Part shown: one piece after another, positions 3,205 to 28,024 of the stretch
How positions within the stretch are numbered: the stretch's first letter is position 1
Layout: the number at the start of each line of letters is the position of its first letter
Origin: Mesotaenium endlicherianum
Lineage: Eukaryota
DNA: 39,676 bases
Direction: 5' to 3'
NCBI GenBank assembly: GCA_009602735.1
Contig: WELA01002297.1
Span: 471,961 to 511,636, forward strand
Notes under the pieces: generated by a model
What the model saw: the letters and a program-made list of their open reading frames with translations, nothing else
Told to the model about the DNA's origin: nothing
Databases searched by the model: none
Translations under genes and position numbers: made by a program

Positions 3205-3739
3205 CATCAAGACCAGAGGTAGGCTGGTGTGCTCTTGCTTGCACTGAAAACATGTAATATGTCTCCACCTGACGGACCTTCACTTAGATATCCATGATGC
3301 TTGTGAACATACTGAGGACTGAATGAAGAAATAGGATAGGTCTTCCTCCTCCATGATGTTTGTGCCTCCAATGCCTAGAGTTAGCACATGCATCCCTATT
3401 TTTATCAACACTTAAGTTTATGGAGTTTTGTTGCAGTGTTGGACAGGGCAGTTTCATCCTCAGGCACTGAAAGCGCCGGCATGTCAGTAGGCGGTCAGCC
3501 CGAGCCCTCCGAAGGTGAAGACTAGGATGACAGGGACTGGGCGGACCTCCTTGGCTAGAGTGAGGAGCAGTGCACGTGCTCGGATGGAAACTGTTGGGGG
3601 GAATGTGCACCCTAAACCTCAAGTTTGGCTGGACCGAGGAGGAGAGGTCTCTGTTGTGAATAATAGCTGTGTCATGCAAATGCATGTCAATAGCACGTGG
3701 ACTTAGAGGGCCTAATAGTTGTACATATAGGCACGTTAG

Positions 3740-4197
3740 AGTTGCATGGCTCCTCTGCGAGCTCCTTGTATAATACTTGATGCTGATTCTTAGGCATGTT
3801 GCTTTAGTTGCACTACTACTGTGCAAATTGAAGGTTTGTACATATGCTTTTGAGATGCTTGTGTAAGAGGTGTCGGCTCCTTGTTGCTACAGAGTACCAA
3901 ATTTTTTTCCTCCATTCTGTAGGGAAGTATTAGGCTCTTGAGGGTCTTATGCAATTGACAAGTAACCAATGTACTTTCATGTGTGTATGTGTGGTTGTGT
4001 GATGTTGAGTCACCAACAACAACAAGCAATATAATCTTAGAAATTATGCGTATATACTTGTGTTACTGTGCTGCACTAAATGAAGCATTTACAGTCGCTA
4101 TGTCACTACTTAATAGTTGAATAATACACCTGCTGTTGTCCACAAGAGAACTCATTAATTGATCAAAATGTATATACAAGTTGAGGTCCTGTACCCT
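3740..4197 (-). repeat. Diverged ~450-bp repeat, copy 1 (inverted relative to 10932-11410)
   Basis: Shared blocks include GGTACAGGACCTCAACTTGTA, ACACAAGC(A/T)TCTCAAAAGC(A/G)TATGTACAAA and TACAAGGAGCTC. Begins immediately after the transposase stop codon. Confidence 0.8.
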
Positions 4198-4200
4198 ATG

Positions 4201-7200
4201 CTATATGTAGTCCTCGATCTGAAGTAGCTTTGGTGCGCGGCTGTGGAATTGGTTGAGAAGAAATTTGTTGCACGAGTTGGCATTGCGTATCATTTTCAAT
4301 ATACACCCGCCCGGGGGTTCTCTGCACTCGCCTTTATCCACCAACTTCCCGTGCAACTTGCACTCTCTCCACACGGCACAGCTTGTCCTGGCAAGGGCCC
4401 ACTCTTCGTCAACATCTCGACCAATGTCCTTCTTATCATTTCTGATGACATACCCGGGTAGATCCTCCATCTCCCAGTAGTACCTTTCCACCTGCACCGT
4501 TGCAATGATTTGGGACGTCGGTATGACGACTGTATCCGCCTCTAGCGTGAAGGCCGGATGCAAAGTGAACTCGTCAATCACCAAGCGTCCTCTCCGATCG
4601 CGTACAGGCTTGAGCGGCCTCACCAGAGCCCATAAATACTCCGTGGTTGTCCCGGGGTTCTCCCGCCTGTCCATGGGATGAGGGATGAGGTGCATGACGT
4701 GCACAAAGAGTCTTTCCACTCTGGCAACCCACACCTGCCTGTTCTTTCTCTCGGCTCCTGTGGCTAAGCCGTTGGCGGCCACTGACACGTGATCCTCTAC
4801 TCTGAAGGTCTCGTTGGGCCCTCCCTTGGAAGCCTTCTGGCACATGTATATGCGCCCATTAATCCATTCTTCGACAGAGACAATCTGCCGGCTCCCGTCC
4901 TCCTGGAGGCCATCACCCAGGACCTTTTCGTCGAACCTCAAGAGCGAGCGGTACTTCCACTCCATGTCCTCCTTTGTGAGTCCTATAGTCTCCAACTCCA
5001 CGAAGGAACGGTCTCGATGTTTCTCTATCCAGCTGCACAGTTGCAATTTGAGGGAGGAACAGAATGAGAATCATTCATCACCACTTTGCATGCCTCAAGC
5101 TTTCCCACCCATGTCGATGGCATGCACAATAGACTTGCAGATTGCATGCGACGAGAATATGCAATATGAAGCAGGAAGGTATAGGAGTAATACCAATTGC
5201 CGATAGCCCCATGGCAGAGCAAGACTGAAGCCACCTGCACCCGCATGTAGACCTCCCTGGATCCGGCGGCCTTGCTATTGTGCACCAGACGTGTATTTTC
5301 TTCCCCCGCATGAGGTCCCACAGCACCGAGTCTTCTCATAAAACTACTTCCTCTCACTGTCTCCACCACATGATCGGCCATTCCCATCAGCCGAGTGACT
5401 GTGTGACCGAAATCCCTGAAGATGTCCATCGTGCACATTCTCTCCAGAGTCCTATACAGTAGCCACTTGGATCTGTCCTGGCAATTCCTGTTATTGAGAG
5501 TCGGCATGTTGTTCTTCATGTACTTGTGCTTGCTCTCAAAGGACTGGCCCCATAGGTGAGCCATAGGGCCGTACTGCTTCAAGGCAGTGCTGTAATGTAG
5601 CAGAGAATGCATGTTGTGACTCGCGTCGTTGAGCTGAGCCGTGACCCCTGCCTCGGCATCGGCCTCTTGCGCAGGGAATGCCTCTACAAAGTCTCTGTGG
5701 AAGTCCTTTGCTAACCTCTCAATCTTGTTGACGTCCCTCTGGCTAATGGAGCTGGCTAAGCAAATCTGTATGAGCTTGCACAGCTTCACCCAGAGCTTCA
5801 GTGCCTTCAGCCTGTGCTTGTACTTGTCCGTGTTGAAGTAGGTCTATTCTGTGTGAAGCGTCTACACCCTCGGATGACAGAAAGGTTGCAGCAAGGCAAG
5901 CATGAGGGGTGCGAGGGCCATAAATGTCATCCCTATGTAAGTGCCGTGATCGCACATGGGCTTCTTCACCTTGTTGTCGCCTCTGTTCACCCTCGCCGTG
6001 TCGGCCCTGTAGTTGAACGCCATTTTCTCGAAAGGCGTCCAAGCACAGTGCGTCGCACTTCCCAATGTGTTCTTTGCCAACGCCTTTGTGATACCGAGTG
6101 CAAACAGGTGAAAAGGCTCCAAAGGCATCTGGAGTATGCGATTCCATCCGGGCAGTTCCTCCAATGGACTCTTCTCCCATCCATAGCCCTTTTGACCTTT
6201 TTCCACTCCATCCAACCTCTTTGCAGACGCTGCATGAACTGCCCTCAACCTCTTCACATCCGCCTCACACTCCCTCTTTGTTCTCTCCCCAAAGTTTTCA
6301 TCCAGCAACTCCTGTCTGGACTCTTCCCACGATCTCTTTTTAAATGCTGCTTCCTCACGCGCCTCCCCAACCTCCACCTTGTAACGCCTGGACTCTTCCT
6401 CAGTACGCGGCACAACATCATTCAACGTCAAGTTCCATTCTTGGAGCCCGTTCTTGCGTACGGTACACACGGGGCACAGGAAGTCGGAAGACTGCCCCTT
6501 CATCATCATACTCTTAGTCCTCTGTGGAAAACCTTGATAGAAGAGCGTCATCACCCTCACCAGACACGCTTGCTTGAGTGGAGCAAAATACATCTGCACG
6601 CCCTCCTGTAGTTGCTTCAGGTCTTCCCTCACGAGGGACTCGAGCACCTCACCATCCCAAGAGTCCATGCTGCCGAATGCAATGAACCTAATGATGCTGG
6701 TATCCCCGATGACACTGCTATCCAAATTTTGCAAGCGGTAGTAGTACCCCGTGACACTCTGACCCTTTTTTCTGAAGATCTTGAAAGCATCCACTAATAG
6801 CAATATGGCCAGGTTCACTACGGGCAGGTTCTTGGGATTGTGTGCCTCTCAATTGGCGTCTGGGGTACCCAGCTGGAAGTTCACAGCTGGTGCCGTTACC
6901 CTCCTGAAAACTCCCTCGTCCTTTTGTTTGAGAGCATCTACACACCAGTAGGTCTCCTTGCCTTCCACTACCCAACCGTGTTCCGACCGCTCCCAGCCTA
7001 ACTCCCCCCAGTTCCCCCCCAATGGTGGTGCACCATGAACAACTTCTCAGGTGCGCAGAATGAGGCTAGGGTCCACTTTCATGGGCTCCTTAGTGAGCAA
7101 GAGCTCCCCGTGCCCTTCACCCTTCTGCATCACGTGAGCACTTATGACGCGCTGTCTATCTGGTTGGCTACTGTCAGTCGACAAGATCTCGTGCACCAAG

Positions 7201-8311
7201 ACCATCACCTCTCGGCCGGCGGCACCTGCGCATGCAGAAAGGCCCTCGTCATTAATGACAAATGAAAGAATAATTGAGGAGAAGGAACTCCCAGGCACAC
7301 AGCAAGCTGAACTCCCAGACTCCCATGGCTAATATGCGATGTGGCAAGCAGGGGTTGCAGTGATATACCCGCTACTTGTGGGCTCATAACTAGGAGTTAC
7401 CCCAAGGCCACCTTCATTTCCTCCCCCCCTGTGTGCATTCGACAGCTGTACTCCCGAAAGAGCGGATGGCCAGTTACATATGGGAAATTGTAGAGCCCCG
7501 TCATCTCTCCGTCCACTAACACCTCAGGCTTGAAGTGGATCTCCCTGCTCAATAAATTGTCCCCCACCATCTCCGCCAGACTTTCGCTGACACGCTTGGA
7601 CCACAGCTTCTCCCCGCTTGGCAGCAGGGTTTCTTGCACACCATGCTTGTGAAATTTGGCTTTCGTCTTGTGTATGTCGTCAATCAAGCACCTTTCTTTG
7701 TCCTCTGCTCTGTAGAACTGGCTATTCAATCTCCACGCCTCTGTCAATCGTTTGGTTTTCTTAGTACTTACATTGTGCAGGATCTCGTAGCCACACTTGC
7801 ACAAGCACGTCGCGCTTTTGAACTTCCCCCGCTCTTCCTCCGTGGCCTCTAATATGATTTCGTCACCACAATTCAAAGCTAAATTTCCTGCTGCGTGTGC
7901 TGCAGCCTTGGCAGCCCTCTCCGATGCCCGCATAGCTGCGTGCTGTTCCCGTACCTCTGCGTGTAGTGCTAAATTAGCTAGTCTTTTGGCTGCCTCTTGT
8001 ACTCTTAAAGCATCCTTGCGCGCTGCTTCTGAGGCTTCTATTTGCACTTGCCTGAGATCTTCCTCTTCCTGCCTTAATTGTTGGCGTGCCTCATTTACCG
8101 CTAGCTGACTAAGGTGTGCTATCTCATCACTGTTTTCAACATGTCTTGCCCGCTCTTGTTCTCTGCGCAATGCTTCTTCATCTGCTGATTCAGCTCTACA
8201 GGCATGATGACAAACCACTCTATACCTCATCCATTCTCCACATTGAGTGCATTGTAATTTCTTATTTTGATGTGGTGCTTCACCACTGCCCAATATCCTT
8301 GGCATCTCCAC
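4201..8311 (-). pseudogene. CMC (CACTA/Mirage/Chapaev)/Plavaka-like DDE transposase, probably spliced, with premature stops
   Basis: Motifs occur in the expected order: LLVDAFKIF..SVTGYYYRLQNL (first D), YQGFPQR..CPVC (second-D position reads G; CxxC), LEPFHLFALG, HNMHSLLHY..YGPMAHLWGQSFESKHKYMK (E), then a beta-rich C-terminal domain ending FLLNQFH. ORFs 7047-7298, 5862-6818 and 5025-5789 form one frame broken by stops at 7047, 6849, 5862 and 5844. The N-terminus has a CxxC..H..C finger and a coiled coil. Probable introns lie near 7226-7400 and 5033-5240; splice phases are not resolved. Confidence 0.85.
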
Positions 8312-9003
8312 AACAACTCTAGTCCTCCTAGTTAAGTGTACCCCTTATGCATTCACCCAAAAACTACGGTTTTACTCGTGAAGAAGACGCCTCAACTGAT
8401 ATCTCCTTGGTGAAGGCAAGAGTATTATTGTCTTCACCTGATACAAGGCAATTTATTATTTGCCTTTGGATAGGTGCCGTATTTTTTCATGTTATTGATC
8501 GATTGCCTGGAAGTTCCGAGCCGACCAATTTATAGTACGTTGCAAATTTTTGGCAATGACGTGACCGTTTTAATTCCGTTGAAAAAAGGATCGGAGACAA
8601 GGAATTTGTCACGGCACGTGACCAACTTTCTGGTCCGTTTCTCTCCAGCGATTTCATTTGACGGACACAACATCCGACCACGACAATCGCAACACTCACA
8701 ATTGCACACACCACGAATGTGCATTCACTGACACGTATCGTCGTGTTTTGGGAGGAGTGTAACAAATGTGAAGGGCACACAAATTATTCCGTTGTGACGA
8801 GTCGCAGACGTCATGACATTTATGCGAGCAAAATGTGAGTTATCATACATTGTCCTCCGCGCGAGTGTCGCTCACGTTTGGGAGTCGGGATATGGCGAGC
8901 TCATGTGAAGTAATTTTTATTAGCAAATGCCACTTTTGGACAATAAAAAAAGGTACAGGAAGTTAGCTCTCTGCATGCTCTACATGCTGCTTAATCTTGC
9001 TTC

Positions 9004-9571
9004 ATGCAGGAAGGGTGGTCGACGAGGCAAAGAATGGCGTCCATTGCCATCTCAGCGGTGGACAACAAGAGCAACGACAACAAGTCCAACGCTAATAGCA
9101 GTAGTAAGAATGAGAAGGTTATTTCTCCCTCTGTTCTCTTTAAAAAGTCTCAATTGCCCAAAATTATGGCTCATCATTCAGAGTTGTACCTCCTGCAATC
9201 TCGTGATGAGAGTCTGAGCCTTGAGCAGAGACACAAAGCCTTGGATTGGCATGCCTTATACAAAGGGCTTGAGGAAACTTAGGAATGCTTCAAACGACAG
9301 GCTCTTGAGGAGCAACGAGCCGAGTCGAGATTTAAACAAGGGAGGCAGGCAGTAGAGAACTTGAGGCATTGGTTGGCGGAAGGCAACACTATGGTGGTAG
9401 AGTTTCACAAGCACAAGGGCCCGAGTTTGTGGATGTGGAGCGAGAAGGTGAAGGAGGGGGCCTGCTTGGCCATGCAAGATACATGATCAGTGCAACTTAA
9501 GTGCATGTGTGAAATGCCCTGTGTTGCTCAGTTCTTTTGGTCCGCTTGTTAGTTTAACAGTGGCCCAACTC

Positions 9572-9632
<61 letters not shown>

Positions 9633-10870
9633 TGCTATTTGTATGTTTGCAATTATTGAAGCAGAAGAGGAGGCCGGCATCCCCGTCGACTGAAGCACCG
9701 ATGTGCAAGGGACCGGCAGGGAACCCAAATCTGTCCCCGGCCACAACCGCCAAGAAGAAAGCCAAAACTCCATGAGAGGTATACACAGCCTCCTGACACC
9801 TTGAGAGCATGTGCATGCTAAACTGTCAACTGACTCTGCTTGTTGGCCACACGGTCTTAGAAAGGGCTCAACTTCCATGTTATGAGTGCAGGCATTCCAC
9901 GTGAAGCGGAGGTTACCATTTCAGTCCCAATGTGGGGGAAGAACAAGGACGGCTATGAACAGGAGTGGGGAGATTGCAACAACAAGAAGTCTCCACAGAA
10001 CAGAGACTCCGGCCTCAACAAAAAAAACTTGTAGACTCTGCACATGGTGAGTAGGTGCATGGTGAGTAGGTGCAAAATTAATAGTGTCTCACTTCATTTG
10101 TACTCCATCTGCATGCTCATGCACATTGTAGCAATCTCAGGCCCTCCTGCATTGGCTGATAGATCACAAGCAACGAATGAGCAGGCCCTCTCAGCGCAAG
10201 CGACACTCTGATGCTGCGACCTGTGACTGCAGAGAAGATTACTCCAAAGGGAGGCTCTTGCGGAACGTATTCGACCAGTTTAAAAAGTAGGACGCCAAAA
10301 TTCAAAGCGCCGCCACGTAGGAGGCCTCCAGCTAAGAAGTCAGCCCAGACAAACAAGAAAATGAAGCAGGCTGCAACTTCAGGCGAGGGTTCCGCTGCTC
10401 CAACAACTAAGAAGAACCAGCAACGAAAGGAACACCGCGTGTCCTCCGTGGAAGAAGAGGACACGGCAACACAGCGGGGTGAGGCAGAGACGACAAGCTC
10501 AGGTGGGCAAAAGATGGATTGGACTCCCTGTTGCACGCAAGTTCGCTGATGCACGCATATCTCAAGAGTCCAGCATCAATGGTGCACCTCTCGTGAACAT
10601 CTGCACAAGGGTAGGTCTACACATGATTGTCACTTGAAGAAATCGGAGCGCTTGTTAGGGATGATAGCATGCCAATATTGGGGCCACTAGAAGATACATT
10701 GTCACCCGTTTCATTTAAACTGAGCAGACTCTGCTTACAAACCGAAGCCCCGGGAGCTGCGTGCTGTGGAGCTGCTTGCTGTGGACTGAACAAGGCAGGA
10801 GCAAGAGGAGTGCCAAAGGCCTGTGTACAATAAGAGGTGCTAAAAGAGGTGATCTGGCATCGTTTAGAGA
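9004..10870 (+). pseudogene. Unknown multi-exon gene (charged helical N-terminus, K/R-rich low-complexity middle)
   Basis: ORF 9004-9282 continues in frame past TAG (ECFKRQALEEQRAESRFKQGRQAVENLRHWL...). Further coding-like pieces lie at ~9665-9775 and 10211-10549, separated by intron-like segments, one containing the (CT)n tract. No domain recognised. Confidence 0.45.
9569..9629 (+). repeat. (CT)n microsatellite, ~30 units
   Basis: Directly visible, with one interruption. Confidence 0.98.
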
Positions 10871-10931
10871 GCTAATGCAACAGTATGGCGGAAATATTTG
10901 TTGTAAGAAGATTTGGGGTACCAGAGTATAT

Positions 10932-11410
10932 GGTACAGGACCTCAACTTGTACATTTTTATATAAAATAAAGCAACAAAACTCTTGTCCACAGGTACTGT
11001 TGTTAGTAACATATACTGATTCCATGATGCACACCGCAAATTTGCTAGGAGCAGAGACTCCAATTGTTGCAGTGCAGGACACTAACACAAATACACATGC
11101 ATACTTTCTGATATTACATTATTGTACATTGTTGGTCACTCAACTTCACACAATCACGCATGTGCATTGGAGGAGGCATGAAAGTGATTTGGTTTTCAAC
11201 TGTTACTTTGACTGCATACATCCCCAAGAGTAAGGAGGATAAAATGATGCTACTCTGTAACAACAAGGCGCCTACACCCCTAACACAAGCTTCTCAAAAG
11301 CGTATGTACAAATATTTGACTCAGACGCTAGTGCTGCAACTAATGTAACCTACCCGTGAAACAATATGAACTACTGTACAAGGAGCTCAAAAAGGGGCTT
11401 TGCAACAGTA
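10932..11410 (+). repeat. Diverged ~450-bp repeat, copy 2 (inverted relative to 3740-4197)
   Basis: Same shared blocks as copy 1. The incidental translations PTPLTQASQKRMYK and PTPLTQASQKHMYK reveal the match. Confidence 0.8.
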
Positions 11411-11643
11411 AGAGCCACATGTGTACAACTATTGGGACCTTGTAAAAGGTCCTCACCTTGCATAGCTTCCATTGCTCTCTGCTTCTAGGTTGAAGCATCA
11501 TCATCCTCCGACTTTGCCCACCACAACTGCACATCCACAATAGCATTTAGTATGTTAGATGGAGGCGCAACAGTGCCAAAACTACCTGCCATTACATGTT
11601 GGGTACAATTAACACAAGAATTGTCCACCTCAAATCCTTCACA

Positions 11644-12424
11644 TCAAGAACTGCCTACCTCCACTCCTCCCATGTAGCAAACGGAGCACATGTTGAAACT
11701 TAAACCGCTTCCTTCCACAGCAACATCCTCACCCTCAGCTTCTTCTTGCACGCGTTTGAGTGCCCATGTATCACCCAGACACTTTCTGTGGGACTGAATT
11801 GCTTCTAATCTCAAGTCGCAATTCACCCAAATTGTATGAGGCTGTTTCTGACATCTGTACTAACTCCTTCATCCATTGGGCAATATCATCTGTGACTCTA
11901 TCAAACTTTCTCTTCCTATTTGGCCCCATCTCCTCAACTGGATCGTCATCAACTGGCTGGAGAGCTGCCACTACATCCAAAGTTGGCACTACATCTCCCC
12001 GTAATGCCTCAAGTTCTAATATTGGAGCTTTGCCTTTGTCTGATGTTGATGCCATGTCCTCCCCTAGAGCTAGCTAACGAGGCCTGCTTCTCAGACAGAA
12101 GGCTTGATCATAGAAGGCTGCAGCCTTTCTTTTGACATAAGATAAATGCTGATTGATGGTGATGTTTATATCTAATTCCGCCGTTGCATCACTCTGGATT
12201 ACCTCCAGACGAGTGATGTTATATGCAAGACTACTTTTCAAGGCTCCAATCCTTTTGATTTCCAATTTGGTTTCCTCTATAAATTCCTGCAGTTCATCAC
12301 ATAAATTGCTATGGCGCTGTTTCTTAGTTGGACTCACCGGTCCCTTTTCAGCACTACTTGTACCTCGTAACCCTTCACCCCCTTTGCTTTTGGACATTGG
12401 CATGTACTGGCTGTTGTCGCTCAC
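11644..12424 (-). pseudogene. Unknown coiled-coil protein gene
   Basis: ORFs 12074-12424 and 11771-12055 share a frame, separated by one TAG. Contains a heptad-like segment ELQEFIEETKLEIKRIGALKSSL and NLS-like PNRKRK. ORF 12587-12919 may be an upstream exon. Confidence 0.5.
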
Positions 12425-13715
12425 TCACAAGACAATGCAGTGTATGAACGATAAAAGCTAGCACAGCTCAAAGAGAAAGAGGGCCTGACTTTGTGACCAG
12501 CCTGAAATCTCAATTTTTGATATCGAATGTATCACGAGCACCACAAGGAACAAAAAAACTCTCCTAACATGCACACAACAGTCTATCTACGCACTGGCCG
12601 AGGGTCCCATCTGTGGATACATTTGTCTTCCATGTAGGAATGTACACCTGAGCCACTTACATGCAGCCATGGCTCTGCATGTGCATTTAAGAACAGGGCT
12701 CGATAGAGGTATTGAAGGACAAGGTTGGATGTTTCCGACTCGCAGGCGCAAGCGCTCGGGTTTGACGATTGAACGTAATTCGACGTCAGTGATTATGTCC
12801 AAGAACCAAGATTCGTTCAACCACGTCCAACCTCTGTGCACAGACCAACCAAGCGTGAGCAAAATATGAACTTTGTGTTGAACGTACTTCAAGTGACCAA
12901 AATATCTAGTCACGCACACGCTTTACTTCGCTGAAGCAAATGACAACAAGATACCGTGAATGGCATATATATAACCGCCAACTGGTGGAACATTTTGCGG
13001 GCCACAGCAAGATGTCCTTCAGAGGTATTCACACAATTATATTTCTAAATAGTATACCACTTGAAAATGAGATAACCTTCTGTAATAATTTGGTTACGAA
13101 ACATGGCCTTCCCGGAGTTTCGATCCTTCGTCTGCTCGTTCGGGAAATGTGCATGAGGTTGACAAAAACATTATGTTTGTTTCAGGAGCAATGCAATAGT
13201 ATGACGGAAATTTTACGTAAATGAAGTCTAAAAGGGTGGAATGGCTTCGGGGTTGCGACCCGACCATTATCACGCTCAACAGGGTCGCATGTGTGGGCAC
13301 ATCAGCTTTTCCACTACATCATACTGGGACATTCTGCCAGTGACGACATTCAAAGTTCATTACTAATGACGTCCTATCATCCACCGAGTACCACTGAAGT
13401 CGAAGCTAGCCCACCGTCGATGCCAACATCACCGCCCAAAGATGCCAAACTCAGTAGTGTAATGCACCTTCGCAGGCCACCTTCCCTCCATGAGCCAAAT
13501 TTGCAAATTTGACGCTAATTTTTTAGAATGACTTCCTTCCAATCTCACTTCATTTTGTATCCATAGAGTGCAACATGATGGGCCCTTTTAATGTCAAATC
13601 CGTTTCTCTCCCCATTTTAAAAGTGCACCACCGCTTTCAGTCACCGAGCTACTACAGACACGCCCACATTGTGTCATAATATATAGCACTAACACCAGAC
13701 AGGGAAATCTTTGCT

Positions 13716-14482
13716 ATGGTGGATGAGCACATGTCAGAGGACTCTACTTTCGCAGAATGTTTCTGTTCCATATGTTTAGGTGAGAACGCGCTTGTGTTTT
13801 TCTTGTTGTGCGAGATATTCAGTGCGATGAGCACGAGGTCAGCAATTTAGATTTTAATACTCTGCACAATTTTAAAAGAGGTCCTGGATTGCATCCTCAT
13901 TTTTGTTTGGCAGATGTTATGAACCCACCCGTGGAGGTACAAGATTGCGGCCACAGGTTATGCAAAAGGTGTATTGAGACAGCACTTGAAAAAGGGTAAG
14001 TCTTGGTCTTAATAGTTATTTTCCCTCAATGACTGGTGCTGCAATTTATTAATGGCACTCTAATGTGTAGCTGAATATTATGTGCAGCCCACTGTCATCT
14101 GCAGGATTCTCCACACTTGTGAGCCACATAATGTTCTAACAGCGGCATGTTGCCGTTTTTGCTCGTGCACCGATTTCCTTGCAGTAAGGGCAAGTGTCCC
14201 CTTTGTAGGAAGCCTGCCACCCGACGGGGATGCCGACGGTTGGATGCTCGTTTGTGTGCACTGATGCACAAACTTCGTTCCACTACCAACGGTTGTACAC
14301 TTGTCAACACTTTAAAATCGTTAGAAACAAGTGACTGCGTGGGTGGCGACTATGCCAACGAAGACACATAGTGTGTTACTTTAACGTTGTCCGAATTGAT
14401 GGGACGCCTGCAGACTAGAACAGCGCGGCTGTGCTGCACTGCTGCTATGCTTCTTTCACACACAAATTGCTGGCCAAGTAGA

Positions 14483-14544
<62 letters not shown>

Positions 14545-15507
14545 TGCAAACTGTCAACCATTTGGAGTTCTTTTCACAAATTGAGCAAGATACTGCACTA
14601 CAGCTCATTACACCATTTTCTTACATGTGACAGTCTCCAATGGCAAGCCGCCTCTCGACGAGGTTGTCTACTATCCGATGAGCAGTAGCTTCATCTGCGT
14701 TCCTGCTGTCTTCTTTGGAAAAGCGTGGGCACAGAAAGAGGTGGGCATACATCATGCTGACGTCTTCTTTAATGGCCAGTGCATAGAGGTACAAAAAGGC
14801 ATATTTGCAACTTTCTTCTGTGATGACGACGAATCGTTTTGGGTCTCAGAAAAGAACGTCAAAGATGATCACATTAAGGAGGATGAGGCTGTGTACAGCA
14901 GGGGTAGCACCGCAGCTCTTTCCGAAAAGTGTAGAACCTTTGTGGTCAACAACCCCAGCCTGTCGTCGGAAGCAAACATTGTAAAGACCAGGAAGGCAAA
15001 ATTGCCTCCCTACTTGACTCTGTTCTGGGGGTTGTTTAGGGTTAGTCCCATTTCGCGCGATTGTCAGTCTGATTCTTCATTCCAGCCGGCTCAATTTGGT
15101 AGTGCTACTAGTTGTCATAGTTCAGGGTAGATATGGAGGGGAAGGTCCTTGGAATACAACGATGGCTGTAACCATAGTCCCTTGTACTGTATCGCCCACT
15201 CGTGTACAGATGTCAGTGTGTTAGATAGGTATTCAAGATCATGTCTCTTCCCCTTGGGATCAAGCAGATTTACAAAAGTTAATGATAACCCGCAGCAGAA
15301 GCCTGTTGTTTTTTAGTGGCCTCGTGGAAGTTGTATCACAAGAGCCTAGCACGTATGAAATCACAGCTGCTTGTTCAATTGAATTCCAGCACACCAACAA
15401 GCGTTGAGTATGAGGTCGAGGTCCAGTACTTTCTGACAGGGTACTCTACCTCTGAGTTTTGTGCAGTGAATTCAGCGCATGATCAAGTCTGGCAGCATTT
15501 CAAATAA
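13716..15507 (+). pseudogene. Spliced RING1-like C3HC4 RING E3 ligase gene fused to unknown domain X
   Basis: Exons 13716-13779, 13914-13995, 14185-14477 and 14634-~15228 have phase-compatible GT-AG introns. They give CSICLDVMNPPVEVQDCGHRLCKRCIETALEKGKGKCPLCRKPATRRGCRRLDARLCALMHKL. Premature TAGs at 14369 and 15128. The third intron (donor GTAGAG) and the last exon (~15317-15507) are less certain. Confidence 0.8.
14480..14541 (+). repeat. (GA)n microsatellite, ~30 units, inside a predicted intron
   Basis: Directly visible. Confidence 0.98.
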
Positions 15508-15684
15508 TCGTCACTCAAATGGTCACTAGTAGAAGCAAATCACCCACTAAGAAACGTCACAACATACTCACTGCAAACTACAAAGTGCTATTTTAACTTC
15601 CTCCCCACACACTAGATGCCGTCATCAAAGGAGTCCTATCAAGCACCTGTTCTTATAGATCTTGGGATACTTGTTGCCCCTCTG

Positions 15685-17951
15685 CTAGTGAAGGCCGTCA
15701 ATCCCCACCAGCGTGCTCACATGCTTTCCGTTACACTTGTGCTGATGCTCGCCGTGTGCACTTTTCCCAGAAAGCCACGTGTTGAAGGCTGATGCCAACG
15801 TGTCACAAGTAGGATGACCTGAGTCTTTCTTTACTCTAATCTCCTCCTCCACAAAGTGGCCGAAAGGCAGTGCGCACCTCAGGACACCACAGCTGCCTCT
15901 CACGGGCTTTAGCAGGTTCAGCGAGGCCCACTGTTTGTTTGTGAGGCCACCCTTGACTCGTGGCGAAGCGCAGGGCTCACTGCGTGTGGACAGCGCATCA
16001 ATGGCCGCCTAGCAGAGGGACGCACGACATGTCGCCAGCAACGCGTGTCTCAGGGGCTGTGCCAGGCTTCCAATGCTTGCCCACTCCTTGTCACACCGCG
16101 GCCGATTGAACCACCGCACGAGTTTGCTCTTAGCGCACCTTTGTTCCTCAATCGACCTGTGCACGAGAGAATTGGGTATGGGAGCGACGGGAGGTGCATC
16201 TACCAGCGCCGACACGTGGACCGCCTGATGTTTCCTAAAATCACCACTCTGCATCTGCCAGGCAACCTTCGACCAGGCGGCTACCTCGTGCAACGGCGGG
16301 TCCTTGCTAAAATCGTACTTGTCTTCGTAGGCATGAGATATTCTACTCTTGATCCATGCCGAAAGGCCTTCCAAAATGGCATTATCTAAGTGGTAAAGCT
16401 GACGCTTTGCGTGGGCCATACAATTTGTCCAGCCAATTGGGAATCCTTGTAGGGTCTCTACGTCCTCCACGCCTAGCCCCCGGAGGTGAGAGGTGCGGCC
16501 CACCTTCTCTACCACGACAAGGAGGTTGGAATTCACGCACGTAACTGTGGGACAGAGGCCGTATGCCTTGTTGGGCAATGCCTCATTCAATCCCGATACC
16601 CACACGCCCTCGTACTCTGTCTTCTCCACCAGGCTGTGATAGGCACAGATGCATATTTCTGTCTGATTGCAAAACGCGCGAGGAGTGAATAGCAGGTTGC
16701 GCGAATCTCCCCAGCGCTTTGCAAGAATGACGACCTGCTCCCTAGCTTGGGGCTGTCCAAAGGACAGGCATTGCACGATTCTGTAAGCCCAATGGTAACC
16801 CAAGGCGTTCAGATTGTGAGCGACATGGGATATATAGGGAGTCCCACTTTGTGTTTTTCTCGTGAGCAGCCCCGGGACATTCTCCAAAAACGACGATAGG
16901 CACTCTCTGTTATTCTAAGAGGCGCCACAGGTGTACAATGAGACTAATTCGCTTCAACGACGCAACCTTCCTGCCTGTGTTACCTCTTGTCAACACATCT
17001 TGGCAGGGAAAGCCCGCCAGGACAAGGTCGATGCCTGGGGAAAGACTGCCCAAGCTCACTACATCCGAATGGACTTGAACACCAGGAAAGTGCTCCTTGA
17101 GGAGGGCCTGACAGCGGGGATTACTTTCAACAAAGACACATATTTTGTGCCCTTGGACGTGGAATGGCAACTCAAAATCACCTATACCAGCAAACAGACT
17201 GCACACTTTCAGGGGTACTCTTCTTTGCCGTCTCTCTTCAGGTGAGACCATTTGCCCATCAGAGTGGGGCAGTACACGTATGGCAGACAAGATTATACCA
17301 AGAGCCCAAGCTTAGCTTAGTGCAATGGACTATTGTGCCAATATTTGGTGGGGAGTCATAAACACCACTAGCAATAAAATGGGGATGTAGGATGCTGGGC
17401 AGTTTGCAGCGCCTAATAACCTCTATACTAGCATCACTGTGCAGCCTAGGGTTCTTGAAGACAAAAGCATCTACGTAGTTGTGTAAATCATATGTGCACT
17501 CAAATGTAGCACGCGTTGTAATTGTGGGTACGTGATATCGTGACACACTATCTTTGTCCACCCAATAATAGTCGCCTTCATTTCGATGGCCATGGCGGTG
17601 GAATATGGCTCCAAAGATATGCAGCTTCATCCTAAGCAAAAGCCTTCATAGAAGATAGTGTCAGCCTGCCCGCCATGCTATTGGGTCGCCCACTCCTCTC
17701 CAAAAAAGGGGGCGGGAATGTGAATGTAGGATGCTGCCATCTCGAATGGGGGGGCCTGAAGGGAGTGCAAGACAAACATAACATGAGTAGCTTCAAGGCA
17801 GGTGTCATACGTCCAAGTTGAAGATCCGCTACTTAATCAAACGAATACGTGCCATGTTTGCACCAAGTGCCATGCAAGAACTTTGGCTATTGTCGTCATA
17901 CCATGTATCGTCGCAAAGGCTGTGCCTCACGTGAGCATAGATCATCTTCAT
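15685..17951 (-). pseudogene. C5 DNA cytosine methyltransferase with N-terminal domain X (disrupted)
   Basis: Motif I SLFAGIG, II VE, III SDV, IV AGFPCQD, VI LENVPGLL, VIII QPQAREQV, IX LQGFPIGWT, X LDNAI. The WAYRIV..FG.PQ and GD.R..L segments resemble compact bacterial-like/algal Dcm-type enzymes rather than MET1, CMT or DRM. Lesions: TAA at 16910, an extra T at ~16886-16890, frameshifts near 17630 and 17250, and TAGs at 17829, 17678 and 16009. A phase-0 55-nt intron lies at 17756-17810. The frame continues past 16009 to 15685. Confidence 0.9.
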
Positions 17952-18605
17952 AGTCGGCACAGGTCGGCACTTGCTCTTTGCATGTACAGCGTAAGGGCTC
18001 CCCCCTAATCGTCGAAAGCGTACGACGTTCGACGACAACAAACGGCATTCAACACTTACGGTGAGTTCGTTTTTAACCGCCACCTTAGTAACGACACGCC
18101 ACCCATGACGGATGTCATTGTGGAGGCCCAAATAGTGTCGTGATTCAGTTCAACGACGTGCACTACCATCAAACCAAGAGATCATGCTGGATGTCGGAGT
18201 GAATTGTGAAATTGTGTCATAATCTCAGAAGAATGAAGCCAATCATCCCAAATTTGCGACTGCGGATCGAGAGTGGAAGACATATAGCAACGTGCCAGCC
18301 GCAGACGGCCGAAAAACACAGCAATTGATTTCGAAGTTCCCTCTGAGGTGGATCGGCGAGGAGCGCCGGAGGATTTTGCTTTCCATGGACAGCATAATCC
18401 ATGTGAGGCCTCAAATGGAACAAAATTCATTGGAATGGGCCGATTCAGCTCGAAATGGAGTTCCATTTTGTAAAGTGGTCAAAATAGAAACGATCTAGCC
18501 CATGTCCAATGTCAGGGTGAGGTGAGATTTGGTTTTATATAAGCACTCTATGAAGTAGCTAAATAACCCTGGACAGATGGAGTTGACATGTTTGATACAA
18601 ATCAT

Positions 18606-18825
18606 GGCGTGCAGACACAAAAACACTCCTCTCACCGTCTCCATCATCAAGAGGTAGGCAGACGTCACCCCCACATATACAGGTAAGTGGGCTGTACCCC
18701 ACGAGAGACAGAAGTATTATGAGGGGGTACGAGTCTTGGCGTGCAGACACGAGAAGGGCCCTCCTGTCACCATCTCCACCCGCAAGAGGTGAGCACATGT
18801 CACCCCCGCATACAGTGATAAGCTC
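18606..18825 (+). repeat. Two diverged direct repeats, period ~132 bp
   Basis: GGCGTGCAGACAC...TCACC.TCTCCA...CAAGAGGT..GCA...GTCACCCCC.CATA begins at 18606 and at 18738. Confidence 0.8.
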
Positions 18826-19977
18826 TTTAAATGTGCTGGGGGGCCTTGGTGTTTCTCCTCTAAGGGCTACATTTGCGCAATGCTGTGCAGGGACACGCCC
18901 ACCAACACAGAGTAGTGGGCAGCATGAGAATCGAGATGCCTCAATGAAATGGAGCTACAAGAAAGAGGGCTTCAGGCGCACTATCAACACCGCCTCACAG
19001 CAGGGGAGGCAACATGTCAGGCACAAAGCGAGCAAGGCACGTGAACATGCCCGTGTATGGCCAGCTACTCTTGGCCGTGAAATGTGCATTGCTACAGTTG
19101 TGAAAGATGTTCAGGAGGCTCTCTGAAATTGTGACTTTGTGCTATGCACAGGCCTGATGAAGAGGCATGTAAATGGCTCAATTCAGAATGCAATGGCAAG
19201 TACTACAAGGGCAAAAGAGGTCATTCGGTAGGCCACGCATAGCATGTAAGGGATTGGAGGCTTGCCTGGCAAGACATGTACCATAGGGAGCATGGCACGT
19301 GTAATGGATAGGGCACGTGCAGTGTGGTAGGCAGTGTAAAAGCACTAGCTTGGAGTGTAATTTATTTGAGTGTGAACGGAGGGTGGCATAGGAGCTTTGA
19401 GCTCGAGCGTGTGTTGTAGACCCAGCTGTTAAGTTGGTTGGATGCCGTGTGGCTCCCTGTGCATTGGACACATTTGTCAAGTTCAGATTAAAATTTATTA
19501 TGTTGCAAAAACGCTTCGCGATTGTCGGTCGTATTTTGCCCGCATCTATGCATCATGAAAATGACGCAGCACAATAGAAATTACACAAATGGAAGTGTTA
19601 CACTAATCGATGCTCGATTGAAGCGCTCTAGTGTGGGCCTGAATCTCCCCATTTGTACCTATTACCGCTAGCAACGCGCACCGACAATCTCCGCTCCTCC
19701 GCTAATCACTGCTGAGCTGCGGAGAATCCATCCTTGATTTGAAACGAAGTACATTCTCCAGTAGATAAGCGTAGTAATTACTGCGCCGCTTGACGGAGAG
19801 ACGGATCTACGCTCCGAGCGACGAGGCTGAAAAACGGGGGGGTCCATTAAAGTGTCGATCTCCGGTACCACTTTTGAACACTCCTCCGATTCCTTAAAAG
19901 CGGAGATTAGGTACTTCTCCGCCTAATTCGTTTCGTTTGGATATCAACGATCTCCACTAGATTGGTCTCAGAGTAAA

Positions 19978-22079
19978 AGCTGGCGCTGCAAATAAAGACT
20001 CGCTCGATCGAATAAATCCCTTCTCTAGTAACTATGTCAACAGCTTCTTCAACTCATCCAACTTCGCAAACGATTGTCAATAAGCGGGTCTTACTGGTGC
20101 CTTGCTCCCTGGTTACAACTCACTTTTGTGCTTCACGGCTCTTTGTGGAGGAAATCCTGCAGGTAGGTCCTCAGGAAACACGCATTTCAATTCCTCCAAC
20201 AGCACCTTAATTTGGGCAGGCATCTCAGCAGGCTTCTTCTTCTCTTGAGCAATTGAGCTCTGTTCCTTCTGAGCAAGGGGATCAGACACCACTACTTGCT
20301 CCTCTGGTGACGCGCGCTCTCCCAAAATTTTAGAATTCACGCTTGCTCCATCTGATGACCGAGCCAGGGTCCGCGAAACAAGGTCCATCTCCTTCTCTTG
20401 ATTTGCCTTGCATAGTTTCTTAATTTGTAGGCTCGACAAAAGACAATTACTTGTGGTCGTATCTACCTCCACCTGTTTTGCTATCTCCATTCGACCATCA
20501 CGCCCTTGGACTTTCACTTGTCCTGTGCTCCAATGCACTCAAGGGTTGGTTTTCCTTAGCCATGGCGGCCCGACATCACCTCATGGTGACCTAGCTCTGC
20601 CTGCTTCATAACTTCATCAAATTGGTGCCCCGCTACTTCCATGTGAATAGCTTTCGTAGGTGCACCACACTTGAGTCTCTGTTCATTTGCCAAAATTGCC
20701 TCCTTAGGCTCATTATGCCTCTGCACAAAGATTCGCCACTCTTTCCCCAGCTTCTTGTGCACAAAGTTTGCATTTGCGCCACTGTCAACCATACACTTCG
20801 CCTTGTTGCCGTCTACTACTCCTTACACGATAATAGGCTTGTCAACATCTCGTCTTTCGCTTCTTAGCAAGCTCTTGGGTGTAACCTTCTTGTGAGTTCC
20901 TTTCTTCACGCCAGTAGACACCCCAGAACGACGTACTGGCGTCCTCCTTTTTCCTGCTGTTGAGGTTGCTTCGCCTTCACACGACAGTCTCGAGCAAGAT
21001 GCCCAAGCTGGCCACAATTATTGCAGGGTCCTCTCGGCTTGTAAATTTGCTGCCTGCGCTGGTTATGGACAAGTCCCAACTCCATAGGTACTGTACCTTG
21101 TCCAGTGGTGCCTGGTGCTTGAGAACCAAACAATCAATGTCCTCCAAAGTTGTGGTCGCCCCAATGCCTCTGATTATACTCCACAGCGTCAACTCTTGTT
21201 TCCAATGCCATCATTTCTCCAAGACTGGTAGGGTCTTTGAGCGCCACTTCCTTGGCCACAGTTGGCTTGAGTCCCCTCTTGAACTTGTCCATCATGTCCG
21301 ACTTGTGCATGGATGGACGTTAAAGCACCAGCTCGTTGAAGCGCGATACATACTTCTGAACGCTTCCTCATTGACAAAGGCCCACCAATAGATCTTAAGC
21401 GGTAGCCTCAAGTGCAATAGGTTAAAATTGCTTCTTCAAACCTTCAAAAAACTAATCATTAATTGCAGGAACTCCAGCAGCTGCTCTTCTCGTTCATACC
21501 AAGCTCCGGCACTATCCTGGAGTAAAGTTATGACAAAGGCGACTTGCCTGTTGGGCGTGAGCGCAGAATACTCCATAAACTTCTTCATTCCAAAAATCCA
21601 TTGAGGAACAGGTGGCAATCCACGCTTTGCAGTATACACTTCAGGCTTAGGCGCACGCACTCTTGATGCAGGTGCAATAACTGGTTGCACCACTGGATTA
21701 ACATGAATTGGTGGTACAACAGGTGCAGGTGCCGAACTCGTCGAAGCGGCGTTCCCAACAACAACTTGCACCATTCTCTCCACCTCCGCGCACATATTTT
21801 GTTGAAATAGGGTGTAGGCTTCTCCTCCAATTTCATTTGTCATTTGTCTTAGCATCGCCTGCATCTCTTGTTGCTCTCTCGTCATCGTTGGCGCTGCCTG
21901 CTGCTCCACGCGCTTAACATGCTCGACATGTTCGCCTCCTCCAGTTGCCGACTGCAACTCCATAATATAATATGCAAACTACCCCAGCTCCAATACCAGA
22001 TGAAAGGGGCGGAGTGCCCCAGTGGAAGCGTAGTGAGTCACGAGGAAAAGAATTAGTTACAATCATATTAAAAAGTGCA
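19978..22079 (-). mobile_element. Ty3/gypsy family A, copy 1: 3' end of 5' LTR, PBS, gag, protease, start of RT (truncated)
   Basis: LTR end at 22001-22079. PBS TGGTATTGGAGC at 21987-21998. gag starts at 21963, with zinc knuckle CNNCGQLGHLARDC. Protease MVDSGANANF. RT N-terminus LLEKGFIRSSESLFAAP ends near 19980. Confidence 0.9.
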
Positions 22080-22813
22080 TGTAAGGTCATAGCTTTATAA
22101 AGTGCATTTTTTGAGTTTCGTGAAAGAATATTTTGATTCTATAGTAGTGTAGAGTGCATTTTTATGGTTATTGTGATATAAAGTGGAGCGAATTTGGTCA
22201 GGTGTTCAAAGAGTTATGAATTTCCAAAGTTTATTTAGTCTTGAGGTCGGTTGACGACTGTCCTTAATTCACAATGAGCGCAACGGTCGGATTGATCGAC
22301 AGCGTTGAGTGGTCAGGGCCGTTAGAGTGAATTTGAACCTTCACGTAACTTTGGCTGACGTGGCGTGCTGACTAGGTCAAGTTACCAAGAAGTTTCAGAT
22401 TAGCCTAGCGCGTCTAAGTTAGTATATTCTAGATTTCGATGCATGCATGTGGACGTCAAATCGGCCCGACACGTCAAATGAGACGGATCTGGTCTACTCT
22501 GGAATATTTTGGGAGGGACAATTTGCCGTTACTAAGCGGCCATCCTGCCTTGAAAGGAGGACTTAGGTCAAAAAACTATAAATAGGCGTAACTTCTTTGT
22601 TTCTAATCAATTTTCACTTCTATAAATCTCTACGAGTTTGTGATGACAAGACCTTTCATTCTAGTTCATTTGTGAGCAGTTTCCTGCTACACAGAATGTG
22701 AAGTAATTTTCCTAAGCTTTGTTAGTGATGTGCTGCTGCACTCTTTAGTATGATTGCAATTGGTTCTTTTCCTCGTGAGTCACTAAGCTTCCATTAGGGC
22801 ACTGCTCCTTTCA
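22080..22813 (+). repeat. 5' LTR of family A (734 bp)
   Basis: TGTAAGGTCA...CCTTTCA. The start is repeated at 25571. TATAAATA lies at ~22578-22585. Confidence 0.9.
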
Positions 22814-22815
22814 TC

Positions 22816-22827
22816 AGGTATCGGAGC
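22816..22827 (+). promoter_or_regulatory. Primer-binding site (initiator tRNA-Met type)
   Basis: AGGTATCGGAGC, 2 nt after the LTR end. The canonical plant form is TGGTATCAGAGC. Confidence 0.8.
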
Positions 22828-22850
22828 TGGGCTAGTTTGCATATTATATT

Positions 22851-24105
22851 GTGGACTTGCAGCCGGCAGCTGGAGGAGGTGAACATCTTGAGCATGTCAA
22901 GCGTGTGGAGCAGCAGACAATGCCAACAATGACTAGGGAGCAACAAGAGATGCAGGCGATGCTAAGGCAAATGGCGAATGCAATTGGAGGAGAAGTCTAC
23001 GCCCAGTTTCTACAAAATATGCGCGCGAAGGTGGAGAGAATGGTGCGAGTTGTTGTTGGGAACGCTGCTTTGACGAGCTCGGCACCTGCACCTGTTGTAC
23101 CACCAATTCATGTTAATCCAGTGGTGCAACCAATTATTGCACCTGCATCAGGAGTGCATGCGCCTAAGCCTGAAGTGTATACTGGAGAGCGTGGATCGTC
23201 GCTTGTTTATCAATGGATTTTTGGAGTGAAAAAATTGTTGGAGTATTCCCCGTTCACGCCCGACAGGCAAGTCGCCTTTGTGCTTATCTTGCTGAAGAAG
23301 AGTGCTGGAGCTTAGTATGAGCAACAAAAGCAGCTGTCTAGAGTTCCTGCTACAGTTGATCAGCTTATTGAAGGTTTGAAGAGGCAATTTCAACCCATTG
23401 CACCCGAGGCTACCGCTCAATATCTCTCGGCGCGTCTTCGTCAACAAGGAAGCGTTCAGGGGTATGTATCGCGCTTCAACGAGCTGATGCTTTAATGTCC
23501 ATTTCATGCACGAGTTGCAGATGATGGACATGTTCAAGAGGGGACTCAAGCCAACTGTAGCCAAGGAAGTGGAGCTCAAGGACCCAACCATGCTTAAGGA
23601 GATGATGGCATTGGCAACGAGAGTTGACGCTGTGAAGTATAGTCAGAGACAGTGGGGCAGCCAGAACTTTGGAGGATATCGACACTTTGGATCTCAAGCG
23701 CCAAGCACGAGTGGTCAAGGTCCAGTACCTATGGAGTTGGAACTAGTTCAGACCCAGCGCAGATAACAATATTTGAAGCCGAGAGGGCCCTGCTATAATT
23801 GTGGCAAGCTTGGGCATCTGGCTCGAGACTGTCATGGGAAGGCGAAGCAACCTCAAAAACATTTGGAAAAAGGAGGACGCCAATAAGTTGTTCTAAGGTG
23901 CCTACTGGCGTGAAGACGACAACTCACAAGGAGGTCATCCCCAAGAGCCTACCGAGAAGCGAAAGACAAGACGTTGACAAGCCTATTATCGTGGAAGGAA
24001 TAGTCGACGGCAACAAGGCGAAGTGTATAGTCGACAGTGGCGCAAGTGCAAACTTTGTGCACAAGAAGGTGGTGAAAGAGTGGCGAATCCCTGTGCAAAA
24101 GTATT
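22851..24105 (+). pseudogene. gag: Gag with CCHC knuckle and truncated aspartic protease
   Basis: PKPEVYTGE, FKRGLKPTV, CYNCGKLGHLARDC (23791-23832) and IVDSGASANF, with several stops and frameshifts. Confidence 0.9.
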
Positions 24106-25583
24106 ATGAAGCTTGAGAGAGGTTATGAGGAAGACCCAGAGTTTGCTTATGGTGGAGCAGCTGAGTCCAACTCGAGTATGCAGAAGAAGGACGGCATATG
24201 GTATTATGGTGATTCCAAGAGAGTGGTGGTACCTGACATCAAGGAGCTACGCGACCTACTACTTACGGAGCATCATGATTGCATATATGCTGGACACTTG
24301 GAAGCGAGAAGACGGCAAGCGTGCTGAAGCGGGAGTACTATTGGAGAAATATGGACAAGGACATCAAGGAGTGGATCAGGAGTTGCGATGCGTGCCAGCA
24401 AAATAAGATACCCAATCAAAAGGAGGGAGGTACATTGCAGCCCCTTCCTATTCTTGAGTATCCTTGGGAGCAGATTGCTATGGACTTTATCAAATCGTTA
24501 CCAGTTAGTGGGCAAGGGCACAATACAGTATGGGTTGTGTCTGATAGACTCAACAAGGTGGCACACTTCATTCCCATGAAGGAGACTTGTACGGCAGCAG
24601 ATGTGGCACGGCTATTCTTTGATTATATTTTCAGGCTACATGGGTTGCCGAAGGTGATTGTTTCAGATCGGGATCCAAGATTTACTAGCAACTTTTGGCA
24701 GTCATTGTTTACTTTGATGGGGACCAAGCACAGTATGAGCAGTTCTTATCAGCCTCAAACAGACGGGCAGAGTGAGAGGCTCAAGAGTCAATAGAAGTTT
24801 GCAAGAGGTGCTCAGGAGTTTTACTATGGAAGACCCTTTAGAGTGGGACAAGAAACTGCCAGGTTTAGAGTTTACCTACAATAACAGCATGCAAGGAGCT
24901 ACCAAGCAGTCAACATTCACTATGGTTTTTGAGAGAGAAGTATATCATCCAAGGAACATCTTGTTGGAGGAGGCCAAGGAGACTCAAGTTCCTACTACAC
25001 AACCTTTTGTGAAGCAGATGGCCAAGACTTGGGACACAACAAAGACGTGTATTTGGAAGGCACAAGAAGAGCAGGTCAAGCATGCTAATAAGCACAGGAG
25101 GGAAGTGACATTCCATGTGGGCGACAACTTACTCTTGTTAACAGAGAATCTACCTTTCACGGGCAAGAGGAAATTGCGGGCACGATTTGGTCCATCTTCG
25201 GTTCTCAAGCAGGTGAATCGAGTGGCCTACAAATTGGAACTTCATTCACGTTGGGGCATACATGATGTGTGCATGTCAGTTCCTTGCGGCCATACGTTGA
25301 CCCAAATGAAGGACATCCAGGACGACTACCTACACCGCCACCACCGGTTGAGATTGATGATGTATTGGAGTATGAAGTGGAGGCGATTGTCGGCGATTCA
25401 CAAGTCAAGCGAGGTCAACGACTTGTTCAAGAGTATATGGTCAATTGGAAAGGCTACCATGCGAACGACAACGCTTGGGAGCCGGAGGCCAACTTGACTC
25501 ATTGTAAGAGTAAGTTGAGACGTCATTTGCAGAATGCGTCGAGGACGTCGCATCTTGAGGAGGGGGATGATGTAAGGTCATAG
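24106..25583 (+). pseudogene. pol: Integrase (HHCC, DDE, GPF-type motif) plus chromodomain
   Basis: HHD..AGH..CDAC, IAMDFI, IVSDRDPRF, DGQSER, RFGP, and chromodomain EYEVEAIV..YMVNWKGY..NAWEPEANL. Frameshifted. Confidence 0.93.
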
Positions 25584-26051
25584 CTTAAAAAAAGTGCATT
25601 TTTGAGTTCAATGAGGGTATATTTTGATTCCATAGTAGTGTAGAGTGCATTTGTGTGGTTGTTTTGATATAAAGTTCATCAAATCTGGTCAAGTGATGAG
25701 AGAGTTATAGATTTTCGAAGTTTAATAAATTTTGAGGTCGGTTGACCACTGTCCTCATTTTACGATGAGCGCGATCGTCAGATTGACCGACAGCGTCGAG
25801 CAATGAGGGCCGTTAGAGTAAAATTGAACCTTCGCTCAACTCGACGGTCGCGCTCACCGCGGATTAAGGACAGTCGTCAACCGATCTCAAAACTAATTAA
25901 TCCGTGGAATATCCACACCTCTCTGAATACTTAACCAAATTTGATGAACTTTATATCAAAATGCCCACGAAACTGCACTTTACACTTATATGTAATCAAA
26001 GCATACTTTCAAGAAATTCAAAAATGCACTTCATAAACCTATGATCTTACA
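25571..26051. repeat. Two family-A LTR 5' portions joined in inverted orientation
   Basis: 25571-~25835 is the 3' LTR start following PPT GAGGAGGGGGATGA (25557-25570). ~25836-26051 is a reverse-complement LTR start (TGTAAGATCATAGG read from 26051). Confidence 0.88.
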
Positions 26052-26261
26052 AAGGGGAAACTTGCCAAAAAGTGACAGTAGGTGACAGTAATTGACAGTT
26101 GTGACAAGCATCCCACATTAAACATGAATCAAATTGGAGGGAGTGGGAACACATCTCGAGAACCAACCAATTGTTTTTACACATCCCTTCTCTACACTCA
26201 ATTGCGCTCACACTCACTTCTCTCTCAAGGGCACTCTCGCTTTCCGCTAACCCACACCAAG

Positions 26262-27906: not shown

Positions 27907-28024
27907 TTTGGTGTTGTCTTTGTTTAGAGTCAGTCTGCTTTTGTGGGACATGTGAGTTACTTTGATGCAATCAGATATAGTAAACAGGTGATGTCGAGTC
28001 AACGATAATTTAAGTTAAATGGAT

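Follow-up and report, generated by a model that had tools for sequence, protein, structure and literature searches.

The window, a 39,676-nt stretch of Mesotaenium endlicherianum contig WELA01002297.1, contains a RING finger gene that likely derives from RING1, the catalytic RING of Polycomb PRC1, but lacks the RAWUL domain and is present as a single, probably silent copy in a decayed transposon-like cluster, to which it is assigned by its context. On balance, we favor the reading that a large EnSpm/Plavaka-type transposon took up RING exons from a RING1 gene in the form of genomic DNA, and that their product would act as a chromatin-directed ubiquitin ligase. The copy in the window is itself a relic in a decayed cluster and is apparently silent. 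Coordinates of the relevant features are given in Table 1.

The first-pass annotation had proposed that the RING is split over three exons with two phase-correct introns, and this is confirmed: joining the three exons rebuilds a complete, stop-free C3HC4 RING in an open frame, with the eight zinc ligands in C3HC4 order and a spacing of C-x2-C-x12-C-x-H-x2-C-x2-C-x11-C-x2-C. Both introns are GT-AG, in phases 1 and 2, with sound polypyrimidine tracts, and exon 2 by itself scores 25.4 bits with the Pfam zf-C3HC4 model (cut-off, 21). The residue pattern quoted at first pass is also present and agrees with the printed RING2 chain, but the end then given, at 14290, falls short, as unspliced exon 3 reaches a TAG at 14369-14371 and the frame without further splicing codes for 110 aa. 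Candidate acceptors at 13698 and 13702, preceded by a CTAAC branch point (13689), point to a putative further exon 5' of exon 1. At the other end, phase-1 donors at 14292 or 14331 provide alternative exon 3 ends that are compatible with the acceptor at 14633 before domain X, making a splice from RING exon 3 to domain X a phase-compatible, predicted model. No second RING was found in the 39.7-kb window. Exon 3 matches 9675-9688 over 14 nt in inverted orientation, but this was attributed to chance (score 31, compared with a shuffle maximum of 42).

Table 1. Features of the RING gene and of the surrounding cluster, in window coordinates
Feature	Position	Strand	Description
EnSpm/CACTA-Plavaka (CMC) type DDE transposase	4204..8344	-	In pieces
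Non-coding block	10922..11445	.	Inverted homolog (~70%) of 3707-4205; the latter adjoins the transposase at its 3' end
Non-coding block	12624..13006	.	Inverted homolog (~74%) of 535-948; 700 nt upstream of the RING ATG
RING exon 1	13716..13779	+	From first ATG; zinc ligands 1-2
Intron 1	13780..13913	+	134 nt, GTGAGA..GGCAG, phase 1; codon after CxxCL, the RING1B D56 position
RING exon 2	13914..13995	+	82 nt; zinc ligands 3-6
Intron 2	13996..14184	+	189 nt, GTAAGT..TGCAG, phase 2; Gly codon, the RING1B G83 position
RING exon 3	14185..14371	+	Zinc ligands 7-8, basic loop, post-RING helix; TAG at 14369-14371
(GA)n microsatellite	14479..14541	.	Between exon 3 and domain X
Domain X	14634..15040	+	~130 aa, stop-free, behind AG acceptor (14633)
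Dcm-like C5 cytosine methyltransferase (PF00145)	16009..17252	-	Two frames; stop and frameshift near 16890-16915
X' (domain X paralog)	17262..17764	-	Immediately upstream of the methyltransferase; disrupted by a frameshift and one in-frame stop

Reference RINGs were collected by scanning metagenome contigs with an E-C-x-H-x-F-C-x2-C-I pattern (at least 119 loci) and viral contigs with two similar patterns, which gave 31 and 79 loci. Of the first 150 loci, 103 yielded a complete RING, as did 45 of the final 79; 138 of these RINGs are unique among the matches listed. This set is biased toward the scan patterns and is without BRCA1, RAD18, and plant ORTH/VIM genes with introns, and the family labels of the loci were assigned by motif in this analysis. 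Among the matches listed, the 11 RINGs ranking highest of the 138 with the spliced window RING are all RING1-type, with animal-type RING1 at 49 to 51 bits, plant-type at 36 to 42 bits, and the first non-RING1 RING at 38.9 bits, the last of which beats three of the four plant-type rows. A RING1 profile scores the window RING at 53.2 bits, above all 72 unlabelled RINGs among the matches listed (best, 49.0), and three BMI1-type rows outscore it. With a BMI1 profile it scores 25.5 bits and ranks 78 of 104, with 48 unlabelled RINGs higher among the matches listed; a BMI1/PCGF identity is not supported by this profile. A PDB search with exons 2 and 3 and the intron between them gave 12 matches at E ≤ 10, the first 10 being RING2 chains, with weak E-values of 0.04 to 0.6, and the other two TRIMs; exon 3 alone best matches BRCA1 (E about 1). 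On the reference ranking and the PDB search together, the RING1-type call made at first pass survives.

Two further features separate RING1-type sequences from other RINGs in this set. The 12/11 cysteine spacing is found in 21 of 24 RING1-type RINGs and in 5 of 114 others among the matches listed. A set of five residues, R70, R91, R101, D103, and L109 (RING1B numbering), which was picked after the alignment was seen, is complete in the window RING, in all 16 RING1 rows, and in six of eight RING1-like rows; among the matches listed, none of the 114 other RINGs has four or more of the five, and the maximum there is three. The window RING is ~40% identical to RING1 and shares eight columns with animal-type rows alone and three with plant-type rows alone, one plant row being without the first eight columns. 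At the level of sequence, RING1 ancestry of the window RING is supported.

The strongest evidence for ancestry is in the positions of the introns. Among the matches listed, the window acceptor site is AG in 16 of 118 scored loci and the donor site is GT in 7 of 118, but both homologous sites are present in just five loci (L087, L092, L116, L167, and L173), all of them plant-type RING1 or RING1-like, and in none of the 113 others. Exon 2 is identical in length (82 nt) and in its phases to the matching exon of these five loci. The upstream exon closes with CL-G|GT in all five, and the same phase is found at the start of the downstream exon in the three loci where it was recovered, as well as in the part-spliced transcript L118. 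The plant-type loci and the window gene do not have the 3' end of exon 3 in common. About nine other intron-bearing RING loci among the matches listed have introns at different places, as read by eye, and the other RING1 loci (animal-type, diatom-type, and others), some of which may be transcripts, have neither intron. The naive chance of two matching intron sites is 5e-5, a figure that proto-splice bias would raise. Agreement at both RING sites with five plant-type RING1 loci argues for descent from a RING1 gene and not for a convergent mimic, and the retained introns point to descent through DNA and not through a processed transcript. The earlier suggestion of a mobile-element RING1 mimic is partly supported, its RING1 type being upheld by introns and best matches. 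In one of the five loci, L116 (4001-6400), a diverged RING1-like gene of plant type, Copia-type sequence follows shortly after the third exon.

The genes surrounding the RING are probably those of a decayed mobile element. The core frame of the transposase (7064-5028) contains four in-frame stops, some perhaps intronic, and scores 0.91 to 0.94 against the Atlas clusters Transposase_21/Plavaka/RAG1, with 0.93 to 0.94 for the Transposase_21 and Plavaka clusters; Pfam gave no CMC-type match for the transposase, and a homolog search with the core returned none. The C-terminal transposase ORF (4204-5070, minus strand) has a pattern that we take to be like that of a BAH domain, for which Pfam gave no match. 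The N-terminal part of the methyltransferase is related to phage and bacterial Dcm enzymes (26 to 47% identity), and a homolog search with its C-part returned none; among viral loci, the best methyltransferase match, L001, lies on an ordinary phage contig that has the enzyme alone in common. From ~20 kb onward the window is Ty3/gypsy debris, and no ordinary host gene was recognized among the ORFs scanned. CG is depleted across the window and CAG/CTG is present at 0.57 to 0.89 of expectation, which suggests CHG methylation and, with it, a host of the plant or charophyte lineage.

The two inverted non-coding blocks (Table 1) can be read either as common promoter/terminator modules within a single large element or as the two limits of an element stopping at 13006; in the second case, that element closes 700 nt before the RING gene and leaves it out. 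No terminal inverted repeats with a 2- to 3-bp target duplication were found in 1-20100, and the left end may be beyond the window. The location of the gene in a mobile element, as given at first pass, is likely by context, but the ends that would delimit the element were searched for and not found. Homolog searches returned no second copy or close relative of the RING gene, and a two-exon query against 1.84 billion representatives, a search weakened by the intron in the query, returned one match, to a repetitive non-RING protein.

Domain X was placed 3' of the RING by the first-pass annotation and is indeed there as a stop-free frame. It and its paralog X' are alike over ~115 residues (score 149, compared with a shuffle maximum of 60 in 1,000), and both are preceded by an AG acceptor and have a Met at the equivalent place, such that domain X could be either an exon within a larger gene or a gene in its own right. 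In the window copy it would either be spliced onto the RING or be expressed as its own gene from a candidate start Met near 14678. Pfam, PDB, and Atlas gave no family for domain X, and no homologs were found among longer proteins. Two AlphaFold models have pLDDT values of 34 and 38, and a fold search with the first of these gave nothing below E 1.4; a match to Cullin-1 (E 0.19) is chance. Domain X may tentatively be likened to a PWWP/Tudor-like reader. One stretch encoding a relative of domain X was seen in a viral contig scan, and the viral scans gave no match to X' or to a PWWP pattern.

No RNA reads were found on the RING region (12600-14476) in four RNA runs, 6 to 24% of each of which was examined at 85% likeness. 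Three other raw-read runs from the same studies placed 2300, 13984, and 3660 reads on 14550-34500, and one contig set placed 21 contigs there, nearly all of these on the retroelement part; in these three runs and the contig set, depth was zero on domain X and at most 0.3 on the methyltransferase. The RING copy is likely silent, a grade short of proof because these control runs differ from the four runs. Silence would also suit a passenger, taken up as RING1 exons in Pack-TYPE style and drifting without serving the element, with its long end branch (1.3 to 2.5) reflecting neutral decay. The neighboring genes are broken, and residues invariant in RING1 are altered in the window RING (L68G, R81E, E86K, and Y114R), as expected of such a passenger. 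We consider this unlikely, since the eight zinc ligands, the E2-facing residues, the splice junctions, and the frame are all intact at ~40% identity to RING1, and neutral decay would rarely spare them. Moreover, the introns show no detectable need of a recent-capture account, and domain X is also found beside a second chromatin enzyme.

The functional residues of the RING bear on what an intact copy could do. The window RING keeps the I53, L55, L80, P88, and R91 positions, from which E2 binding is predicted. L55, L80, P88, and R91 participate in E2 binding in RINGs generally. A role in E2 binding is described for I53 (PMC10638273). Position 81 is E, reversing the charge of R81, which is reported to aid RING1B (PMC6465349). 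An Arg-Arg pair at positions 96 and 97, followed by G at 98, places the basic loop one residue earlier than in RING1B. Docking to the nucleosome acidic patch is described as occurring through K97/R98 in RING1B and K70/R71 in BRCA1 (10.1101/2024.01.02.573964); the window pair is in the BRCA1 register, at equal distance from the last Cys, and nucleosome docking may thus be retained. The post-RING helix pattern (L106, A108, L109, M110, and L113) is kept.

The absence of a RAWUL domain, claimed at first pass, holds: Pfam scans of the ORFs tried in the 39.7-kb window gave none, and tblastn of 15 RING1/BMI1 ORFs against the window gave the RING exons plus 27158-27259 (E 0.12, with a stop inside). 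The RING1 N-terminal arm was searched for upstream of the RING and not found. Writing of H2Aub or titration of BMI1 partners, as suggested at first pass, is thus hypothetical for a gene with E at 81, with neither RAWUL nor the arm detected, and with zero reads in the four RNA runs. RING1 is defined, in the sources available, by a RING together with a C-terminal RAWUL (PMC10638273, PMC6599366, PMC8594731), and the window gene is therefore not a full RING1 ortholog or a full PRC1 subunit; Arabidopsis RING1 minus its RAWUL is reported to keep part of its function (PMC12999195). A missing RAWUL, an E in place of R81, and a shifted basic loop, together with a retained post-RING helix, could indicate a decoy that binds host BMI1, or an E2 and the nucleosome, without productive H2A ubiquitination and thereby blunts PRC1 silencing, and transposon-encoded Polycomb antagonists have been proposed in plants (10.1101/2024.09.27.615353). 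This is rather improbable, however, given that the residues for E2 binding are preserved, as is the R91 position, that the Arg-Arg pair in the BRCA1 K70/R71 register perhaps keeps docking, and that the N-terminal arm is not detected.

Placement of the RING in trees is unstable, falling inside RING1 in two of three. A 103-row quick tree under a mixture model has it within RING1 (SH-aLRT 95) on a branch of 1.26, next to animal-type RING1 (99), and a 24-row tree limited to RING1 and BMI1 has it in the animal-type group (92/89), but in a 35-row LG+G4 tree, whose outgroups have long branches, it falls outside RING1. Neither placement with plant RING1 nor placement with BMI1 is rejected by AU tests (p 0.19 to 0.33). 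There is also a conflict between the residues, which are animal-like, and the introns, which are plant-like. D56 is described as metazoan-only (PMC10638273), and its codon in the window RING is split by intron 1 and is one base from the plant Gly. The one tree outside RING1, the small score margins, and the match of exon 3 alone to BRCA1 (E about 1) could be read as those of a generic non-PRC1 C3HC4 RING that is RING1-like by chance or through older common introns, but with both introns, the exon length, the spacing, and the residue set all as in RING1, this is very improbable. Least probable is a divergent host RING1 paralog amid transposon debris and not cargo: the RING exons and X are stop-free among broken neighbors, element ends were not found in 1-20100, and plants are reported to have RING1 proteins without RAWUL (PMC6599366), but domain X is common to the adjacent Dcm-like methyltransferase locus, no ordinary host gene was recognized among the ORFs scanned, and the RING has zero reads in the four RNA runs.

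The analysis shows the anatomy of the locus and its RING1 signatures; capture by this element, the RING-X fusion, targeting by X, and activity are inferences in line with the favored reading. A large CMC-type transposon would have picked up these exons from a host RING1 gene, and the captured RING would have lost its RAWUL and ended up ahead of the element's domain X. In intact copies, the RING would bind an E2 and use its Arg-Arg loop to dock at the nucleosome acidic patch, with domain X replacing RAWUL as the aiming part, and nucleosomes would be ubiquitinated at sites chosen by X. Domain X also precedes the methyltransferase and would aim that enzyme as well; with one domain aiming both enzymes, the element would govern its own chromatin state without the host route of PRC1 recruitment. 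A broader proposal, that a giant plant-lineage EnSpm/Plavaka family carries a RING1-derived H2A ligase and a phage-like C5 methyltransferase, both fused to X as a new targeting domain, and so evades or rewires Polycomb silencing with a component borrowed from PRC1, is doubtful and is offered tentatively.

Comparison with known systems places the window RING closest in kind to RING1/RNF2 (human RING1B and AtRING1A/B, the PRC1 catalytic RING), with which it has in common the C3HC4 order, the 12/11 spacing, the post-RING helix, the I53, R70, G83, R91, R101, D103, and L109 positions, and the introns of plant-type RING1. It differs in being without RAWUL and the N-terminal arm, in having E at 81 and the basic pair one residue earlier, in its ~40% identity, and in being followed by domain X among transposon genes. 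The RING of BRCA1, also an H2A ligase, has T-K70-R71 in register with T-R-R of the window RING after the last Cys pair, but differs in spacing after the last Cys, has no R91-type Arg in its alignment, and is not among the two-exon-query PDB matches at E ≤ 10.

Transposons with SET, TET/JBP, and DNA methyltransferase genes are already known. Giant Plavaka/EnSpm elements (red algal PAG2, with SET and a DNA methylase, and fungal elements with TET/JBP) have a CMC transposase, as here, and are described as carrying several accessory genes, including a DNA methylase, in 17 to 19 kb (10.1101/2025.02.11.637652; PMC12730594), but the window pairs a RING1-derived RING with a methyltransferase of the C5 type (PF00145), neither of which is named for those elements in the available text of these sources. 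Symbiodinium and Klebsormidium retrotransposons with a C5 methyltransferase, described as LINE/DIRS with Dnmt3-type enzymes in Klebsormidium and DIRS (PMC5890265), likewise join such an enzyme to a mobile element, whereas the enzyme here is Dcm-like and is beside a DNA transposase. VANC and PMD-C are described as plant transposon anti-silencing proteins that act on chromatin silencing (10.1101/2024.09.27.615353), but they are DNA-binding, non-enzymatic, and unrelated to PRC1 subunits. An old role of Polycomb in transposon silencing is proposed (PMC10638273), and no report of a transposon carrying a piece of PRC1 was found in the open-access literature, subscription journals being largely uncovered. 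If the favored reading is true and the element active, it would allow an arms race between transposons and Polycomb to be tested directly and would provide a natural RAWUL-less, retargeted RING1, and domain X would be a new candidate chromatin-targeting domain common to two writers.

RING1-like RINGs are also present as an expanded group in diatom-like contigs (L076, 3779-5460; L090, 1487-2940; and L134), where repeats stand in place of RAWUL. These repeats may resemble a helicase-associated domain, and the set is possibly an independent re-fusion of a RING1-type RING to another domain.

The window has several other features of note. Four ORFs without a recognized family (9034-9483 and 10181-10549, plus strand; 11774-12424 and 17832-18149, minus strand) are arranged head-to-head and tail-to-tail between the transposase and the methyltransferase, and 9034-9483 has an in-frame stop. 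A ~720-bp repeat at 1641-2361 has the look of a solo LTR, with its ends reading TG..CA and an apparent target duplication of 5 bp; it is 82% alike to 35358-36078 and, inverted, to 28025-28746, and it splits a plus-strand gene (frame 1356-1640 into 2362-2996) for whose product Pfam gave no match. A 1.4-kb gypsy segment is present twice, inverted and with 85% identity, in 20710-24109. At 29175-30340 and 32349-32852, RNA reads of related gypsy copies have joints with CT..AC-like ends in several runs, which are possibly spliced antisense transcripts.
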